Notes: a model not told the origin generated them from the letters alone. DNA of 64,000 nucleotides from Methanocaldococcus indicus (GCF_049554935.1 NZ_CP186926.1:416001-480000); one strand, 5' to 3'; shown: positions 24,800-32,076, numbered from the stretch's first letter. Translations and numbers: made by a program.

Positions 24800-25166
24800 A
24801 ATTATCACGCTAAAAATCTTTATTTTTTGATTTTATTTAGTTTTAGTTGGTTATTTTTAATTTAAAGGATTTTTAGGAAAATTCGAAGGGGTCATTATTT
24901 TGAATATTTTGTATATTTTGATTATATAATTTATTGAGATTTTTTAGAGATTTATGTTGTTTCTTCCAATATTTGAAAATCCCTGATAAGTTGGTTTAGT
25001 TTTTGGAAATTGGGACTTTTTAATTGAATAATAGGAAATAGAAAGATTTTTATAAAAGTTCAAAGGTATATAAATGAATAGGGAAACCTACCCTTCGAAA
25101 ATTTTAGTACCAAAAAGCTTATATATGAGAACGTTGCTATATTATTATGTCTAAAATGTGCCTCCT
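24800..25166 (+). promoter_or_regulatory. CRISPR leader with BRE/TATA
   Basis: AT-rich non-coding region before the first repeat; AAAAAGCTTATATAT at ~25112-25126; left boundary approximate. Confidence 0.7.
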
Positions 25167-26264
25167 GTTAAAATAAGACCGTCCCGGTATGGAAATTTTA
25201 TGTTATAATTTGTAATAGTATATAACATAGCTAAATGTTAAAATAAGACCGTCCCGGTATGGAAATTGCATCTCTAATAATTCTTTCAGCTGGAATGTGC
25301 TTGTTAAAATAAGACCGTCCCGGTATGGAAATTTATGTTATGACATTGGAATTGCAGGAGATGTTAAGTTAAAATGCCTTTCTAAATCGTTCTTTTGGTC
25401 TCTGCTTGAATTGGAATTGCAGGAGATGTTAAGTTAAAATAAGACCGTCCCGGTATGGAAATTATGAAGTCATAGAAATGGATGGAGAGCCTTTTTTGTT
25501 AAAATAAGACCGTCCCGGTATGGAAATCAACTTTTAAGAATTCTTTTGTTAGTTGGACTGGCTTAGTTAAAATAAGACCGTCCCGGTATGGAAATAATTT
25601 TGTCCTTGTGAGTGTTACTTTTAAGCCATATCCCTTAAGTTAAAATAAGACCGTCCCGGTATGGAAATTTCATTCCAAGAAAACGAAAATCTCGATAGGC
25701 GTTAAAATAAGACCGTCCCGGTATGGAAATAAAAAAGAGATGTGGTGCTCAATGGTTATTTGTTTAAGTTAAAATAAGACCGTCCCGGTATGGAAATCTT
25801 CATATTGGAATTCTTCTTTATCTTGCAAACCATGTTAAAATAAGACCGTCCCGGTATGGAAATCTTCATATTGGAATTCTTCTTTATCTTGCAAACCATG
25901 TTAAAATAAGACCGTCCCGGTATGGAAATTTTTTTGAATACATAGCTAATCACTTGACACTTGATGTTAAAATAAGACCGTCCCGGTATGGAAATATTGT
26001 AGGGGATATAACTAACACAATTAGGGTTAAGTTAAAATAAGACCGTCCCGGTATGGAAATATGACTAAGCAAATATTTTGAAGTATAAAACAAAATGTTA
26101 AAATAAGACCGTCCCGGTATGGAAATCGTCCCCCCTCGCCCCTCGGCTTTAAAGTCATGACATGTTAAAATAAGACCGTCCCGGTATGGAAATCTTATCT
26201 CAAATTGTATCTCAAATAAAAGATGCTAATATCAGTTAAAATAAGACCGTCCCGGTATGGAAAT
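25167..26264 (+). CRISPR. CRISPR array: 16 identical 30-bp repeats GTTAAAATAAGACCGTCCCGGTATGGAAAT; spacers 32-43 bp plus one aberrant 100-bp interval
   Basis: Repeats start at 25167, 25237, 25303, 25433, 25498, 25566, 25639, 25701, 25768, 25834, 25900, 25966, 26031, 26097, 26164, 26235; no cas genes in the window. Confidence 0.99.
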
Positions 26265-26403
26265 CTTTCTTTTATTCAAAAAATAAAAAATAAAAAGGCA
26301 AATGTTTTTTTTTTATATTTGAGAAATCTAACAAATAAAAAATGTTAATAAAACATATAGTGGTGTTCCAGCAAAATCAACTGTAACTCCACTTAAATAA
26401 TCC

Positions 26404-26602
26404 TATTTTCCAATTAATCCTAACTTAGCCAATAAAGCACTTAACTGAATTCTTTCATTTACCGCCGCATAGAGGCAAGGCCTCTATTGCTATACACCAG
26501 AGAGGGGTTGCTTTTGGGCAACCCCACTTTAAATATTAAGTATTTTATTTTCCAATTAATCCTAACTTGGCTAATAAAGCACTTAACTGAATTCTTTCAT
26601 TT
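26404..26602. repeat. 57-bp direct repeat of the rfcS 3' end flanking an 84-bp double-hairpin insert
   Basis: 26404-26460 vs 26546-26602, 2 mismatches; hairpins ATAGAGGC/GCCTCTAT (26469-26487) and GGGGTTGC/GCAACCCC (26504-26525). Confidence 0.9.
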
Positions 26603-29600
26603 GCTCCTTCAACTATTCTATAATCTGTTTCTCCTATTGCCTCAGCTATTTGAACTTTTTTCTTCTCATCTATATTTAGATTATTAATTTCTCTAAACAT
26701 TTGATTTAGAATATCTTCTCCACTCATACCCCACTCTAACATCAATTTGTATAATAAATCTCTTGCTTCATTGAATTTTCCTTCTAAGGCTAAATCCATC
26801 ATCTTTCTAACTTCTTCTGGTCTTGCCCTTGAAGAAACTTTGTATATAACTTCATCATCTATTACATCACTTATAGCAGAAGCAGTTTGTAGAACATTAA
26901 TTGCTTTTCTTAAATCTCCCTCAGAAACATAAATTATTGCATCTAATCCTTTTTCTGTTAATTTTAATCCTTCTTTCTCAGCAATCTCTTTTAATTTTTT
27001 AGCTATATCTTCTCTTTTCAATGGTGAGAATCTAAATATAGCACATCTTGATTGTATTGGTGGGATAATCTTGCTTGGATAGTTGCAGTTGTGGGATATT
27101 AACCCATTTGCTATAAAGGAGTGGTCTTTAAGGCATGTTATATCATACACATCTCTATAACCAATACACTCTTTTTTAATGATTCTTTCTGAAACATACT
27201 TTCCATCAACAACCTTTTCTTTTAAGAACTCTTCAAAGGTCATAAAGTTTCTTGGTAATCCAATGTCTTTTCCTTTAAGTTGATTTACTATAAAATCAAC
27301 TGGAATGTTATATTTCCTTGCTAATTCTCTTAGAGATTTTTCACCATCTACTTCTTTCAATGCCTTTTCAGCAATGTCTTTTAGGATTATATCTTTATAT
27401 GCTTCTTTGATTCTTAAATACTCTCCAACCAACCTTGCAAAGTTGTCTTTTTCATAGGCATAGGATATTCTTGATAAATATTTGAGATAGTTTTTATTGT
27501 TTGCTTTAACTATCAACTCAATTAAGTTTTTGTTATCAATTTTACTAACTCTAATATCTGCCTCAACTTCAAATTCCTTCAACATTTTTCTAATGTCTTC
27601 AAAGAACTCTAATGTTTTATATTTACTAATATTTTCAACTCTTATACCTAATTTAATTCCATTTATGTTATATTTTTTAATGTATGGTTTAGTTCCATCA
27701 GCTCCAAATAATCCTCTTAAAAACTCTCTCTTAACAAATTTATTTCCATATTTTATCCATTTTGGAATATTGTAGCCATTTATAGTTTTATTTCCAATTT
27801 CTACTCCCCAGAAGTTTAACAATAGATATAATGCTTTATTATCAATGTATATGAATGATGTTTTCCCTTTAATTTCTCTACCATCTAAGTTATGATTAAT
27901 ATCTTTTTCAATTATATTTGATGATTTTATGCCTAATTTCTCTAAATCCTTCTTAATTTCTTCAAGTTCATTTATTGTAGCAGTTATTAATATTCTTCCT
28001 TCTTTTGATTTTGATAAATGCCCATCTCCAATTATAAAGCCTAACAACCTTGCAAATATTCCTGCTTTCTCATCATCATAAGTTATCTTATCCCATCTAA
28101 GTTCTTTGATTTTCTTTATGTATTTTAAAGCAAATCCATTAATTTTTCCATCAATAAGATTTTTTATAGTTGTTAATGATATTTTTATCCCAAATTCTTC
28201 CTCAATCTTTCTTTTAATCTCTGATTTGTTGTATTTTCCTGATAACTCTAAAACTCTATTTAATATTTTTTCTTTATCTTTTGTTATTAATTCTTTATAG
28301 GTTTTTGCTTTATCATAAGGTTTATATCCAATTTTAAGCTCATATTTTGTTAAAAACTCATAGAACTCATTTAAGTTAATTATCTTCCTATTATCAACTT
28401 CAAACTCAACTCCTTCCAATGCTGGATAAACCAATATCCCATCATCTTCCTTTAACTCATAAACCTCCTTCCACCCATATCTTGTTAAAAACTTGTGGTC
28501 TCCTGTTGCCTCTATCTCTCTACCACTTTCTAAAACTAATCTATAAACCTTATGATTTACTATCTTTGAATTAAATTTAACTCCTGCTAAAACTAAATCT
28601 TCTCCACTTCTATTTAAAACATGTTTAATTTTTCTTTTTTCAAACATTTTTATAAAGTCCTCTATCTTTATCTCCCTCTCATCTGGAAGAGTTATTTTTG
28701 CATCTCCTGTTAAACAACTTAAGATAAATCTACATACATCTGAATACTTCTCCATTGTTCTTCTTAAAGCATTTTGAGCATCTGCTGTTAGTGCATCACT
28801 CTCATCTAAGAATATTATCTTAAATGGAACATCTCCAATTGGCTTAGTTCTTGCAAATTCTTTTACTTTTGTCCTAATAACGTCTATACCTCTTTCATCT
28901 GAATTATGTAACAATATTGGCACATTTCCTGCAAAGAACATTTCATTATTTGGAACTGACACATCATAAACAAAGTCATTGTAGTCAATAACTTCAATCT
29001 CTTTAACAATCAAAGCATGAATCTCTGTTTCAGATAATTTTTGTAATAAATTGTAAATCTTTCTTTCTACATCAGTTAATTTCTCAACATCAACCATTTC
29101 TAAAATCTGCTTAATTTTGTCCTTTGAAACTCTCTTTTTATTTTCATAGAGTTGGTGTCTTAATATATATCTCCAATTTCCTTTTATCTTACTATCTAAC
29201 TTTTTAATCATTTTAATTATTGGCTCACTTGGTAATAAATTGCCTTTCTTCCATCCCATTTTTCCTTTCCAAATTAATCTTACCTCATTTTCAAATATTG
29301 AACTTTCAATTCCAGAAATTCTTGCTAACCATGCTGTATCTATTAATAAATTCTCGGATTTTGATGATATTCTAACAACTCCTCCCCAATTTCCACTGCC
29401 ATCTCCATCAGCCAATCCTTTTAAAAATTCAACTCTTAAATTTTCTTTTAACTCATATACAATATCTGGAATTCTTTTATCTCCTGCTTTTCTTCCATTT
29501 CCATTGTAGAAGTTTTTCTCAATAAATTTTGCAAGTTGAGTATTTAATATTCTAATCTGCTTAGCAGATAATCTTTTTCTATCAAATCCAGAACCTGTGA

Positions 29601-32076
29601 AGTTTTCATATTTACTAAATCCTTTTTTATCAATGATGTCATTTAGTCTATCAATTAAATCATGCTCATGACTGCCTAATGTGTAGATTACTTGCCCGGA
29701 AGTTTCTCCTCTAAATCCTATGGCTCCTTCAGCAGCATACAATCCAAGCATCCATGCAGTATCTTCATCAACCTCAAACTCATTAATTACTTTAACTCTT
29801 GAAGTTATATCCTTTGGTTCAAACTCTTTTAAATCTAATTTATCTTTTTCTCCTTCAATATTAGATATAAAGCTTAATAGACAATCTCCAACCTTTATAT
29901 CACTTGCTTTTCTTGCTACTAATCCATTTTCATCAAGCATCATAATAGAGTGGTTTCCTGTTAGTTCTATATATCCACCTTCAAACTTAACTCTTAAGAT
30001 TTTATCTACTTTATGCCTAATTATTGTAGAAACTTTTCTCCATCTAATTTTGAAATCTTTATCAATAGTTAAAACCTCTAAGTTATCAACTTTTTTATAC
30101 ATCTCATTTTCATCATTGGTGTTAAAGTATATCTTATCAAGCTCTTCAAATGTTGTTCTTTTTATCTTTCCATCTATTTTAACCAATATTGGAGTATTTT
30201 TTGAAACGGAGGCATTCAATTCCAAAAAGTTTTCTTTCCAATTTTCTCCAAATAAATCTCTTGCTAAACAAAGGGCTGTAGTTGTATTGTGTAGTATTGT
30301 TGGTAAATTCCCACCAATGAAGTTATGATATTTTGGAACATGCAAATCATATATTGTAAAGTCACCATTTAATTGTTCAATTTCTACAATCTCATCCCAG
30401 TAGATTTCGTTAGATGCTAAGAATAAGATATAACTAATACTATCCATTAATTTTTCATCATTGAGAATATCTCTTACAAGTTTGAGTTCAACCTTTCTAA
30501 TTTCTTCAAGCTTTTCAATTTCTTGTGTATTGCTTTCTAAATAAATCCTTATACTTGAATTCCATGTATTGAGCATCCTTCCTATTTCTGCATAACTTGA
30601 ATATTTCTTAGCAAATACTCTCATTGCATCTATTGTTTTTTCAATATCTTTATTTAAAGCATTAGCAATTTTTATGTAATTCTTTAAACTTGGTTTTCTT
30701 TTACCTTTTATGTATTCTAAAATCCTATCACTTCTTATTTCTGTCTTTTCTGCAATTTCTTTTCTTCTTTTTTCAACATCATTCCAATCAATTAATATAC
30801 TCTTTTCTAATATTTTTTCAATTTCTTTTAGCTCTTCTAATCTGTAATATATTTCATTTAAAAGTTCTTGAGCTATTTTTTTGCATTTATTGTAACTCCA
30901 ATTATCCTTTTCAATATCCCTCGTTAATTTAACTTTTAATCTATCCCTAATGTATTTTATTTTCTCTTTGTCAATAGTTATAACATCTAAGTTTGGATTT
31001 TCATCTTTTATAATATTTAAAAGCTTTTTAAGTTTTCTTTCATGATTAAAGCCAATATTATCTAAAAATGCTTTTAAATTTATAGAGTTTGATATTACAA
31101 TATGGTAATATTTCTTGTTATTGTTTTTATTTACTTTTTCTTTTAATTTTGCAATTATTCCAAACCTTAACAATGCATAAGTTAAATCCTCTGCCATCTT
31201 TTTGCTTGCAGTTGATAAAACTATCGAATGGCTTTCAACACCTCCATCACAATCAAAGTATGCTCTTAAAAATGCTTTTAATGCTCTACTTTTCATTATT
31301 TCTTTTGGAATTCTAACTTTATCTGCCTTACTTCCCCTTAAACCAAGCTTATCAATTAATGCCATTGCCTCTTTTGAATTAACATAAATATCTGGTGTTC
31401 TGTCTTTGTGTATTCTTTCTTTTATTTTTGCATCTTTAAATAATCTTTTAGTAAGTTCTGCAAATCTCTTTCTAAGTTTTTCATCACTGTTTGTGAAGGT
31501 TATCTTATTTGATTCTTTATCTGCATGCCCATCTCCAATGAAATAACCAAGCCACTCTGCTAAATCATCATTAAAATCTTTTTTTTCAAATAAGATGTAT
31601 CTTGGTGTTGCTAACTTATCTCCTACTTTTAAATTCTCTGCTTTTACCCATTTTATTTCTCCATTTTTATTGTTTATTAGTAAAGGATGATAAGTAGTTA
31701 CCTTTAACTCTCTACCCATTTTAGTTTTTATTTTTATTAAGACATTTGTTTTATCTTTATAGACATATTTAACATTAAATTCTTTAATTTTTCCATCTTC
31801 ATCAATTCCTAAAACCTTTAAGTTGTTGGTTAAAGTAGCTCCAAACTTTCCACTACTTATTTCTTCAACAACTTCTCCAATTTCTTTAACTTCTCCATTA
31901 ACAATAACTCTTGTATTTCCAGTTAAGCACTTCCCAACTCCTGGAGGTCCAGAGAAAAGTAGATGGGGCATACTTTTCTTTTCAACATACTTTTTTAATC
32001 TTTTTACTATTTCTTCTTGTCCAACAACTTCATCCAATGTCTTTGGTCTATATTTCTCTACCCATGGCTTTTCCAT
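26545..32076 (-). CDS. rfcS: Replication factor C small subunit with three inteins (316 aa after splicing)
   Basis: PWVEKYRP, GPPGVGK|TT, ELNA|SDERG, DESD, FILS|CNY, SRC. Confidence 0.97.
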   Translation of the reverse strand: MEKPWVEKYRPKTLDEVVGQEEIVKRLKKYVEKKSMPHLLFSGPPGVGKCLTGNTRVIVNGEVKEIGEVVEEISSGKFGATLTNNLKVLGIDEDGKIKEFNVKYVYKDKTNVLIKIKTKMGRELKVTTYHPLLINNKNGEIKWVKAENLKVGDKLATPRYILFEKKDFNDDLAEWLGYFIGDGHADKESNKITFTNSDEKLRKRFAELTKRLFKDAKIKERIHKDRTPDIYVNSKEAMALIDKLGLRGSKADKVRIPKEIMKSRALKAFLRAYFDCDGGVESHSIVLSTASKKMAEDLTYALLRFGIIAKLKEKVNKNNNKKYYHIVISNSINLKAFLDNIGFNHERKLKKLLNIIKDENPNLDVITIDKEKIKYIRDRLKVKLTRDIEKDNWSYNKCKKIAQELLNEIYYRLEELKEIEKILEKSILIDWNDVEKRRKEIAEKTEIRSDRILEYIKGKRKPSLKNYIKIANALNKDIEKTIDAMRVFAKKYSSYAEIGRMLNTWNSSIRIYLESNTQEIEKLEEIRKVELKLVRDILNDEKLMDSISYILFLASNEIYWDEIVEIEQLNGDFTIYDLHVPKYHNFIGGNLPTILHNTTTALCLARDLFGENWKENFLELNASVSKNTPILVKIDGKIKRTTFEELDKIYFNTNDENEMYKKVDNLEVLTIDKDFKIRWRKVSTIIRHKVDKILRVKFEGGYIELTGNHSIMMLDENGLVARKASDIKVGDCLLSFISNIEGEKDKLDLKEFEPKDITSRVKVINEFEVDEDTAWMLGLYAAEGAIGFRGETSGQVIYTLGSHEHDLIDRLNDIIDKKGFSKYENFTGSGFDRKRLSAKQIRILNTQLAKFIEKNFYNGNGRKAGDKRIPDIVYELKENLRVEFLKGLADGDGSGNWGGVVRISSKSENLLIDTAWLARISGIESSIFENEVRLIWKGKMGWKKGNLLPSEPIIKMIKKLDSKIKGNWRYILRHQLYENKKRVSKDKIKQILEMVDVEKLTDVERKIYNLLQKLSETEIHALIVKEIEVIDYNDFVYDVSVPNNEMFFAGNVPILLHNSDERGIDVIRTKVKEFARTKPIGDVPFKIIFLDESDALTADAQNALRRTMEKYSDVCRFILSCLTGDAKITLPDEREIKIEDFIKMFEKRKIKHVLNRSGEDLVLAGVKFNSKIVNHKVYRLVLESGREIEATGDHKFLTRYGWKEVYELKEDDGILVYPALEGVEFEVDNRKIINLNEFYEFLTKYELKIGYKPYDKAKTYKELITKDKEKILNRVLELSGKYNKSEIKRKIEEEFGIKISLTTIKNLIDGKINGFALKYIKKIKELRWDKITYDDEKAGIFARLLGFIIGDGHLSKSKEGRILITATINELEEIKKDLEKLGIKSSNIIEKDINHNLDGREIKGKTSFIYIDNKALYLLLNFWGVEIGNKTINGYNIPKWIKYGNKFVKREFLRGLFGADGTKPYIKKYNINGIKLGIRVENISKYKTLEFFEDIRKMLKEFEVEADIRVSKIDNKNLIELIVKANNKNYLKYLSRISYAYEKDNFARLVGEYLRIKEAYKDIILKDIAEKALKEVDGEKSLRELARKYNIPVDFIVNQLKGKDIGLPRNFMTFEEFLKEKVVDGKYVSERIIKKECIGYRDVYDITCLKDHSFIANGLISHNCNYPSKIIPPIQSRCAIFRFSPLKREDIAKKLKEIAEKEGLKLTEKGLDAIIYVSEGDLRKAINVLQTASAISDVIDDEVIYKVSSRARPEEVRKMMDLALEGKFNEARDLLYKLMLEWGMSGEDILNQMFREINNLNIDEKKKVQIAEAIGETDYRIVEGANERIQLSALLAKLGLIGK
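27088..28716 (-). mobile_element. Intein RFC-3 (543 aa), LAGLIDADG
   Basis: FILS|CLTG...LGFIIGDG...GLFGADG...SHN|CNYP. Confidence 0.93.
28903..30210 (-). mobile_element. Intein RFC-2 (436 aa), LAGLIDADG
   Basis: ELNA|SVSK...LGLYAAEG...GLADGDG...LHN|SDER. Confidence 0.93.
30286..31929 (-). mobile_element. Intein RFC-1 (548 aa), LAGLIDADG
   Basis: GVGK|CLTG...WLGYFIGDG...AYFDCDG...LHN|TTT. Confidence 0.93.

Follow-up and report, generated by a model that had tools for sequence, protein, structure and literature searches.

A two-module hairpin array between two allele-like copies of the rfcS gene end in Methanocaldococcus indicus

We have analyzed a stretch of 64,000 nucleotides from Methanocaldococcus indicus (NZ_CP186926.1:416001-480000, hereafter the window), in which rfcS, the gene of the replication factor C small subunit, is followed by a short insert with two hairpins and then by a second copy of its own last codons. 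The neighborhood of the insert consists of rfcS, a CRISPR (short palindromic repeats, clustered and regularly interspaced) array and an NFACT gene (Table 1). The genome under study, labeled G000 in the comparisons below, comprises 1.41 Mb plus a 22-kb contig and has a G+C content of 28%. The protein encoded by rfcS matches the Pfam families Rep_fac_C (residues 1752-1837), AAA lid, Intein_splicing (three times) and LAGLIDADG_3 (three times), and its C-terminus can be aligned with those of 15 orthologues of the same genus. On the minus strand the open reading frame (ORF) ends with ...NERIQLSALLAKLGLIGK-TAA. Since the duplicated stretch extends to the gene end, rfcS is left intact.

Table 1. Features at the rfcS end, with positions counted from the first letter of the window
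Feature	Position	Strand	Basis
rfcS (replication factor C small subunit), 1843 aa, three inteins, intact	26545..32076	-	ORF and Pfam
Tail copy 1 (working), last 19 codons: (A)AAT GAA ... GGA AAA TAA, with TTA GCC	26545..26602	-	in frame with the rfcS ORF
Insert, 84 nt: AT-rich lead (AATACTTAATATTTAAAG), hairpin module 1, hairpin module 2, then GCGGCGGT	26461..26544	-	
Hairpin 1: GGGGTTGC-CCAAAA-GCAACCCC, 8-bp stem	26504..26525	-	
Hairpin 2: TATAGCAATAGAGGC-CTT-GCCTCTATG	26468..26494	-	
Tail copy 2 (spare, untranslated), same 18 codons, TTG GCT, TAG stop	26403..26460	-	
Unit of 142 bp, made up of the insert and one tail copy; missing from a ~99% identical strain	26431..26572	.	metagenome contigs
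AT-richer hairpin GTGGAGTTACAG..CTGGAACACCAC, just behind copy 2	26360..26392	-	
CRISPR array, 16 identical 30-nt repeats (GTTAAAATAAGACCGTCCCGGTATGGAAAT), context only	25167..26264	+	RF01326, 36.9 bits against a gathering score of 37

A direct-repeat search shows that the two tails share 57 nt (26404-26460 and 26546-26602) with 2 mismatches, TTG GCT versus TTA GCC, their starts lying 142 nt apart. A repeat of this length and fidelity is far beyond chance, and a BLAST search of the tail against its own locus returned just these two copies. Their stop codons are TAA (26545-26547) in copy 1 and TAG (26403-26405) in copy 2. Over the 19 codons the copies differ at three positions including the stop, with 3 synonymous and 0 non-synonymous differences. 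An earlier note on this DNA had described synonymous changes and a change of stop codon, and all three differences are indeed silent. The same note held that the element replaces the 3' end of rfcS; here the duplicated tail is real, but there is no functional replacement, as the same 18 residues are encoded by both copies. Translation running through the TAA into copy 2 was rejected as well, because the distance of 142 nt between the copies is not a multiple of three and the frame of copy 2 would be missed.

The insert between the tails was folded as DNA and forms GGGGTTGC-6-GCAACCCC and (A)TAGAGGC-3-GCCTCTA(T), in agreement with the initial description of two GC-rich hairpins followed by GCGGCGGT. 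The fold has a dG of -17.4 kcal/mol and a z of -4.17, and 0 of 200 shuffles were as good. ORF and Pfam searches found no gene, transposase, integrase or insertion sequence (IS) in or beside the insert, with 84 nt lying between the repeats. At its two ends the insert reads AATACTTAAT... and ...GCGGCGGT, which do not form inverted copies of each other, as judged solely by reading both ends and not by an inverted-repeat scan. That the unit has no integrase or transposase and, on this reading, no terminal inverted repeats had been noted before. A miniature inverted-repeat transposable element was rejected as well, on the grounds that the ends lack inverted repeats and that the duplication has no fixed length (57 nt here, 20-70 nt at other arrays). 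Compared by BLAST with its own genome, the insert matched just itself and AT-rich stretches of up to 21 nt. None of the Rfam covariance models matched the insert in a search of positions 25000-27500 with E up to 1, which returned the CRISPR repeats and one chance snoRNA elsewhere.

In the genus the situation is different. We compared 17 genomes of the genus (G labels) and 24 genomes from outside it. The part of the insert at query positions 170-241 has many matches in same-genus genomes at 76-91% identity, reaching 93% over 46 nt, and was matched in 0 of the 24 outside genomes. The family form of hairpin 1 is AAAGTGGGGTTGCC..GGCAACCCCGCTCTGG. For hairpin 2 the exact pattern TATAGCAATAGRGG..CCYCTATG occurs in 27 copies distributed over 11 of the 17 genus genomes, and the reversed-pattern control gave 0. 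The more general hairpin ATAGRGS..SCYCTAT was counted 15-48 times per genome in 11 genomes (controls 0-2) and 0-5 times in G000, G002, G003, G004, G013 and G014. These hairpins are organized in arrays, which are composites of about nine recurring modules in a fairly constant order, and the right junction of an array always lies exactly at the end of the terminal module (...CTATGC or ...CCCTATGG). Judged by these matches, the insert forms an array of two modules from the GC-rich palindromic hairpin repeats that are spread across the genus, and is non-coding and non-autonomous. It ends with ...GCGGCGGTA directly before AATG, where the usual family end is ...GCGGTGGTATACCAATAGGG..CCCTATGG, and therefore resembles a usual array whose last module may have been deleted. 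The expectation that the hairpins belong to a dispersed family is borne out at the level of the genus; within this genome the pair is unique. Hairpin 2 had 0 matches in a viral contig collection. Hairpin 1 was found at 9 metagenome loci, 8 of which belong to unrelated GC-richer organisms and represent chance terminator-like hairpins. The ninth, on the AT-rich metagenome contig L130, has the same layout with a duplicated gene tail of ~68 nt.

The modules of the insert are probably the MJRE repeats of Suyama, Lathe and Bork (2005, FEBS Lett 579:5281). The palindromic repeats of M. jannaschii are likewise short, GC-rich, multi-copy, intergenic or at gene ends, and confined to this archaeal group. 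The family is therefore not undescribed, as was first proposed: palindromic repeats of this kind were reported for the genus in 2005, as cited in PMC2229807 and PMC2996958, which speak of M. jannaschii palindromic repeats with open reading frames that were found fused into protein genes. In the literature searched, which did not cover the 2005 original, we found no report of long allele-like flank duplications or of empty-site polymorphism at these repeats.

Flank duplications are not a peculiarity of rfcS. The genome under study contains just two real arrays, at rfcS and at hsdS, and both have them. A scan for perfect 7-bp GC-rich stems gave no other array outside rRNA and similar sequences; it was too strict, and the second array was found with the ATAG..CTAT pattern. 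A third hit of that pattern (C1:1366193) was set aside, as it lies within coding sequence and looks like chance. The hsdS array lies outside the window (G000:C1:1054124-1054190; L142 2125-2191), immediately behind a gene for type I restriction specificity (Pfam Methylase_S). Here the order is ...KVMDLLLTGKIRIRR-TAA, two modules, then AAGGTT...KIRVKT-TAA, so the array stands between two copies of the last 16 codons. These copies differ by 3 silent and 3 conservative codon differences (KVMDLLLTGKIRIRR against ..IRVKT, each before the stop), and the modules are the same pair as in the rfcS array of G014, described below.

For a systematic sample we took all hairpin hits of G006 and those of G015 up to 776 kb, in total 49 arrays with at least 300 nt on each side. 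An array passed when its left/right flank alignment exceeded the 99th percentile of 2344 mismatched pairs, with repeat masks built within each genome. This was the case for 13 of the 49 arrays, against ~0.5 expected. Among the 13, eight have a duplication of at least 20 nt that abuts the array, and five are matches of 14-16 nt, some of them distant from the array, that may be due to chance. When only arrays that contain hairpin 2 are considered, 8 of 23 pass, one of them owing to neighboring paralogous genes; by eye the figure is about 14 of 27. What is duplicated is in some cases a gene 3' tail (rpoK, a 2-oxoacid oxidoreductase subunit and others), in others a gene start with the upstream 30-45 nt, or a tRNA 3' end (L051), with lengths of 20-70 nt compared to 57 nt at rfcS. 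The prediction that family copies abut duplicated gene ends holds for part of the arrays, at 3' tails, 5' starts and tRNA 3' ends. In G012 the duplicated stretch is a degenerate CRISPR repeat. At one locus of this genome (L055; G012:C7:18748-20374) we observed an array between two degenerate CRISPR-like repeats (..TAAAATCA(A/C)GCCCCAAAGGGGA..), that is, in spacer position. Two candidates were discarded: the high flank score of L053/L060 stems from two neighboring potassium-channel paralogues and not from a target duplication, and the supposed alleles at L049 may be paralogues, as they belong to a multi-copy gene family with one copy on an extrachromosomal contig of G009, and an empty site was not found to be assignable there. 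The suggestion that the elements enclose cargo elsewhere found no support in the sample, in which no array exceeded about 560 nt and no cargo genes were seen, small ORFs not being screened.

Imperfect direct repeats around a replacement tail that is brought along by the element are the layout of an integrative element. The repeats at rfcS could accordingly be relic attachment (att) sites: a plasmid or virus with an integrase would have entered the rfcS 3' end with a tail of its own, and an internal deletion would have left 84 nt between attL and attR. The tRNA 3' ends duplicated at some arrays (L051) would be in line with such an origin. However, no integrase or other gene lies between or beside the repeats, the dozens of targets would need as many site specificities, and the material between the repeats always consists of the same dispersed modules, of which hairpin 2 is absent from the viral contigs. 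We consider this origin very improbable.

The way in which the tails differ from each other is informative. In 18 coding pairs, 58 of the differing codons are synonymous and 24 non-synonymous (71% synonymous), while random substitution would give 18% synonymous (23% if transitions are favored threefold); the observed value was reached in 0 of 2000 simulations. When each locus is represented by a single pair, there are 38 synonymous against 19 non-synonymous codons, or 48 against 24, and again 0 of 2000 simulations reach this. A dead copy that drifts freely cannot account for this synonymous excess. The 10 nucleotide differences between the rfcS tails of G014 are all silent, and so are the 9 between the tails of the 2-oxoacid oxidoreductase gene in G015. 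The earlier note had taken the rfcS tails for two alleles rather than for a simple target duplication, and the codon counts support this reading of the tail copies as alleles instead of a newly duplicated target.

In G015 the oxidoreductase tails, which are 80% identical, lie beside an array that is itself perfectly conserved. This composite array of 228 nt is present twice at 100% identity, 867 nt apart (L040 1422-1649 and 2289-2516), with a 4Fe-4S ferredoxin gene between the two copies. Both copies are accompanied by a flank duplication, which is 45 nt long at 80% identity in one case and about 17 nt long in the other. The identity of the two arrays implies that whole composite arrays are copied as units. 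In the main rival explanation, an enzyme acting in trans would insert arrays at gene ends through staggered cuts 20-70 nt apart. Both tails would at first be identical copies of the resident target, and gene flow from array-free relatives would later overwrite one or the other of them up to the array. Many unrelated targets with duplications of variable length, the copying of whole arrays in G015 and the right junction that always lies exactly at the end of the terminal module would all be expected of true transposition. The G015 arrays speak also against it, because tails of just 80% identity beside identical arrays fit poorly to a duplication made at insertion. To our knowledge, no transposase makes target duplications that are so long and so variable.

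A search for TnpB (PF07282) gave no match above the cut-off in G000, G002, G003 and G013, the four hairpin-poorest genomes (0-3 hairpins), and 1-10 matches in 9 of the 11 hairpin-rich genomes, which would favor a role in transposition. This correlation is weak, however. It is confounded by kinship (at least G003 and G002 are nearest to G000, by one protein), the two hairpin-rich genomes without TnpB are incomplete assemblies, and none of 11 loci (8 TnpB and 3 TnpA, with 1.5 kb on either side) contains the hairpin pattern. One 33-nt match to another module lies inside the TnpA/TnpB locus L134. Taken together, we regard transposition by a trans-acting enzyme as possible, yet rather unlikely. The earlier note had thought of HUH/REP-like or attC-like mobilization in trans, in which single-strand hairpins would be recognized by a Y1 enzyme of the REP/RAYT or IS200/IS605 kind or by an integron integrase. 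The hairpins are indeed stable, GC-rich, modular like arrays of repetitive extragenic palindromic (REP) sequences and bacterial interspersed mosaic elements (BIMEs), and without terminal inverted repeats. But the co-occurring HUH gene that was to be sought is not in this genome: the Y1 HUH transposase PF01797 has 0 matches in G000, is absent from the hairpin-rich genomes G015, G009, G016 and G006, and occurs in just 3 of the 17 genus genomes, in one of which it is broken. The modules are also not found at the ends of the 11 TnpA/TnpB loci. Because of the PF01797 distribution and of these pattern-free loci, both the HUH/REP idea and the alternative that the hairpins match the ends of an IS200/IS605 element are unsupported. 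Moreover, HUH insertion leaves no target duplication, and we know of no integron integrases in archaea. Such mobilization is hardly credible here.

Natural populations contain the rfcS locus without the insert. In the metagenome runs X2 and X3, which come from one study and neither of which is the probable source run of the genome, Logan contigs of a strain ~99% identical to ours join 26430 directly to 26573. The joint skips 142 letters, and 30 letters fit either side, so it may lie up to 30 nt further within the identical part of the repeat; the flanks contain 0-2 other letters. There is one such contig per run, with 720 nt and a depth of 123.5 in X2 and with 353 nt and a depth of 421.6 in X3, and both runs have zero depth over 26464-26557. 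With the joint placed there, the letters at 26427 and 26430 should be those of copy 2. The comparison of strains that had been proposed earlier hence reveals a clean empty allele. It is scar-free, and is the product expected of recombination between the tails, or else the site before integration. The change at rfcS may accordingly be a recent loss or a recent gain. Repeats of more than 30 bp with a single copy at the empty site of a relative are the marks of insertion with long target duplication. The tails differ by 5% and the strains by about 1%, which suggests that the duplication is older than the split of the strains or that one tail has come from further away. A metagenome scan for the tail sequence of this genome gave 0 matches. 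As a separate observation, 5 of the 9 differences from the X2/X3 strain over ~700 nt of rfcS cluster in 34 nt (positions 26986-27019), which looks like a short recombination tract within rfcS.

The comparison between species adds a longer perspective. At 13 of the 15 same-genus orthologues rfcS has a single tail, and no hairpin is found within the 260 nt compared. The other two are G004 and G014. In G004 the rfcS stop is immediately followed by hairpin modules, within which the contig ends. In G014 the rfcS tail is duplicated from the same first base (at AATGAAAG) as in our genome, but around different modules than the modules 1 and 2 found here. By the identity of its NFACT protein to that of our genome (71%), G014 is among the most distant members of the genus, compared to 83% for the nearest, G003. 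Over 40 nt our spare copy and that of G014 are identical, compared with about 7 differences between the two working copies in their first 36 nt. TAG is the stop codon of both spare copies; of 15 working tails, 14 have TAA and one has TGA. The last four variable codons of the spare copy, on the other hand, match the species' own protein, LGLI here and MALM in G014. From this mosaic of cross-species identity and species-own last codons it follows that recombination has occurred within the tail. The pattern speaks for one old rfcS event whose product would have moved between lineages or been partly converted. The 85%-complete assembly of G003, the nearest relative, lacks the rfcS tail. In G004 (L009; G004:C26) the modules begin 16 nt behind the rfcS stop, and these 16 nt, TTGTTAGGATTAATAA, contain a 12-nt match to the LGLI-type tail of our genome, although the working tail of G004 is of the MALM type. 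This piece may be the remnant of another displaced tail.

A similar history can be followed at rpoK. G010, G011 and G006 have an array with a spare tail, G009 and G001 an array with a reduced spare tail or none, and G015 a cleanly empty site. In three species the spare copy still reads PLKPIRP(V/A)KA before the stop. Codon 9 is AAA in all three spare copies and AAG in the working copies, and since this difference is common to all, the pair predates the three species. Between G010 and G011 the upstream coding sequence differs by 4.3%, the working tail at 2 of 33 positions, the spare tail at 4 of 33, the array at 14 of 77, all in hairpin 1, and the downstream sequence at 1 of 106. The hairpins at rpoK hence decay fast and the spare tail moderately. 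Within one array the decay is very uneven: hairpin 1 of G011 (L113) has 14 changes in ~48 nt relative to G010 (L046), mostly from G/C to A/T, while hairpin 2 has 0 in 29.

The decayed hairpin of G011 resembles one at our locus. The AT-richer hairpin behind copy 2 is identical to it at 16 of 17 positions, a score reached by 0 of 500 shuffles; its match to the window's own insert is weaker, with 20 of 500 shuffles reaching the score. It might possibly be an older, decayed module 1. With such a hairpin also behind copy 2, the locus can be read as two units of tail plus hairpin, which would be the outcome of a local tandem duplication by replication slippage without any mobility. Outside the tail, however, the two units differ grossly, and other species have copies of the insert with 93% identity over 46 nt. 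Slippage would leave both the allele-like divergence and the pattern across the family unexplained, and we give it next to no weight.

Repair of a double-strand break would be another way to obtain the layout at rfcS. A one-off repair from a diverged template with hairpins behind its stop codon, perhaps in the course of intein homing, might have stalled at the hairpins and ended with an out-of-register join. The three LAGLIDADG inteins of rfcS, the junctions at hairpin ends and the region downstream of rfcS, which differs among species so that homology ends at the stop codon, are all compatible with this. It is harder to reconcile with the same layout at rpoK, hsdS, the 2-oxoacid oxidoreductase subunit and tRNA genes, all of which are intein-free. 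Furthermore, the boundary common to G000 and G014 points to the inheritance or transfer of one event rather than to repeated accidents. Break repair by itself does not explain the clean empty allele, though later recombination between the repeats could do so. In our view a repair accident is quite improbable.

What reading, then, fits the data at rfcS? Insertion with long target duplication was reportedly described by Nobusato et al. in 2000. We propose that the insert is an archaeal, non-coding case of it, maintained and removed by homologous recombination of the host, and we see about an even chance that this is correct. The scheme would start from the layout with the insert directly behind the rfcS stop, in the order working tail, hairpins and spare tail. 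Recombination between the 57-nt tails would delete or release the 142-bp unit cleanly. Through a single Campbell-type crossover in the tail, a released or transferred piece of tail and hairpins could then re-enter the same gene elsewhere, on another chromosome copy or in another strain or species; the duplication would thereby arise anew, its tails differing in ancestry. Either tail might become the working end and both would stay coding-competent; for that reason, it is proposed, the tails differ mainly at silent sites. One could go further and regard the arrays as a distinct, enzyme-free kind of mobile DNA, in which the captured gene end serves as a homology address for entry by one host-mediated crossover and for exit by the reverse reaction, the hairpins may be points of break, stall or protection that set the cassette ends in a hyperthermophile, and working and spare ends swap. 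This we offer tentatively and with some doubt. If it is true, the working and the spare end of a gene repeatedly trade roles, and selection at the protein level acts on both.

Several points weigh against the proposed scheme. No circle, released piece or integration event was seen, in contigs that cannot show rare forms, and a double-stranded circle of 142 bp would be very small. A duplication is detectable at just about a quarter to a third of the arrays, hence most copies must have arrived or persist in another way. The genomes compared are kin and not independent. The 18 coding pairs were picked by eye with frames set by peptide motifs, and two of them, L042 and L054, are mis-framed and contribute 1 synonymous and 2 non-synonymous codons. 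At rpoK the spare tail changes faster than the working tail between G010 and G011, as partly relaxed constraint would give. At rfcS both of our tails carry LGLI, which is found in 0 of the 15 other species, so that a foreign donor would have to be a close relative, or the copies were homogenized. In the empty allele the piece 26378-26430 has 2 mismatches whose positions are not listed, and the assignment of its tail (sites 26403, 26427 and 26430) depends on where the joint is placed.

Insertion with long target duplication is known from bacterial restriction-modification genes, which were found between variable repeats of more than 30 bp and without another mobile element (Furuta et al. 2010, PMC2853133). 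There, the repeats often span a start or stop codon and the gene survives, empty sites exist in sister genomes, naturally competent species are favored, and a cycle of entry, use of the repeats and release was hypothesized; no archaeal case is said to have passed the screen. The rfcS insert has in common with these restriction-modification inserts the long, near-identical target repeats, the preserved gene and the empty site in a relative. Unlike them it is 84 nt long and non-coding, its repeats are more diverged and allele-like, and it carries no nuclease.

Other known systems resemble the insert in part. Bacterial REP/BIME sequences with their RAYT enzymes also form mosaic arrays of GC-rich extragenic palindromes just behind genes, but most genomes of this genus have no Y1 enzyme, and REPs are not flanked by long target duplications. 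Integrative elements at gene 3' ends (attL/attR) also bring a replacement tail and displace the old tail as an imperfect direct repeat; by contrast, the insert has 84 nt, neither integrase nor genes, and many targets across its family. In the displacement of rhs and cdiA C-termini, and in the hybrid genes made by endonuclease ORFs in fungal mitochondria, an incoming piece supplies the gene end and the old end is orphaned downstream. There the new tails change function or an ORF is carried, whereas the rfcS tails encode the same peptide and nothing is carried. The element is thus a known kind of repeat; its long allele-like duplication and its reversibility were, as far as our searches reach, not found in the literature for archaea or for non-coding inserts. 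New here are a hairpin-poor genome whose two arrays are both duplicated, a scar-free natural empty allele, a boundary common with a distant species and counts with controls.

Under the proposed reading, insertion with long target duplication would be extended from bacterial restriction-modification genes to archaea and to DNA without cargo. Hairpin repeats could enter and leave gene ends without breaking the gene. In a very compact genome, selfish non-coding repeats could settle at essential gene ends at no cost, since the long duplication restores what the insertion would disrupt. The polymorphism of filled and empty sites in natural populations makes the mechanism testable. The spare tails might serve as small archives of other alleles, and their silent divergence and cross-species identity would trace recombination between lineages of hyperthermophilic methanogens that is otherwise hard to see. 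In annotation, spare tails and hairpins may explain contig breaks and odd small ORFs behind genes.

The CRISPR array next to the locus is given as context. Its last repeat lies 139 nt from copy 2 of the rfcS tail. A repeat-spacer unit (25768-25833) is repeated exactly at 25834-25899, and a 31-nt stretch (25345-25375) occurs again at 25410-25440; spacers have therefore been duplicated inside the array. The contigs of the X2/X3 strain carry other sequence beside the last CRISPR repeats (joint from 25996 to 26335, loose ends).

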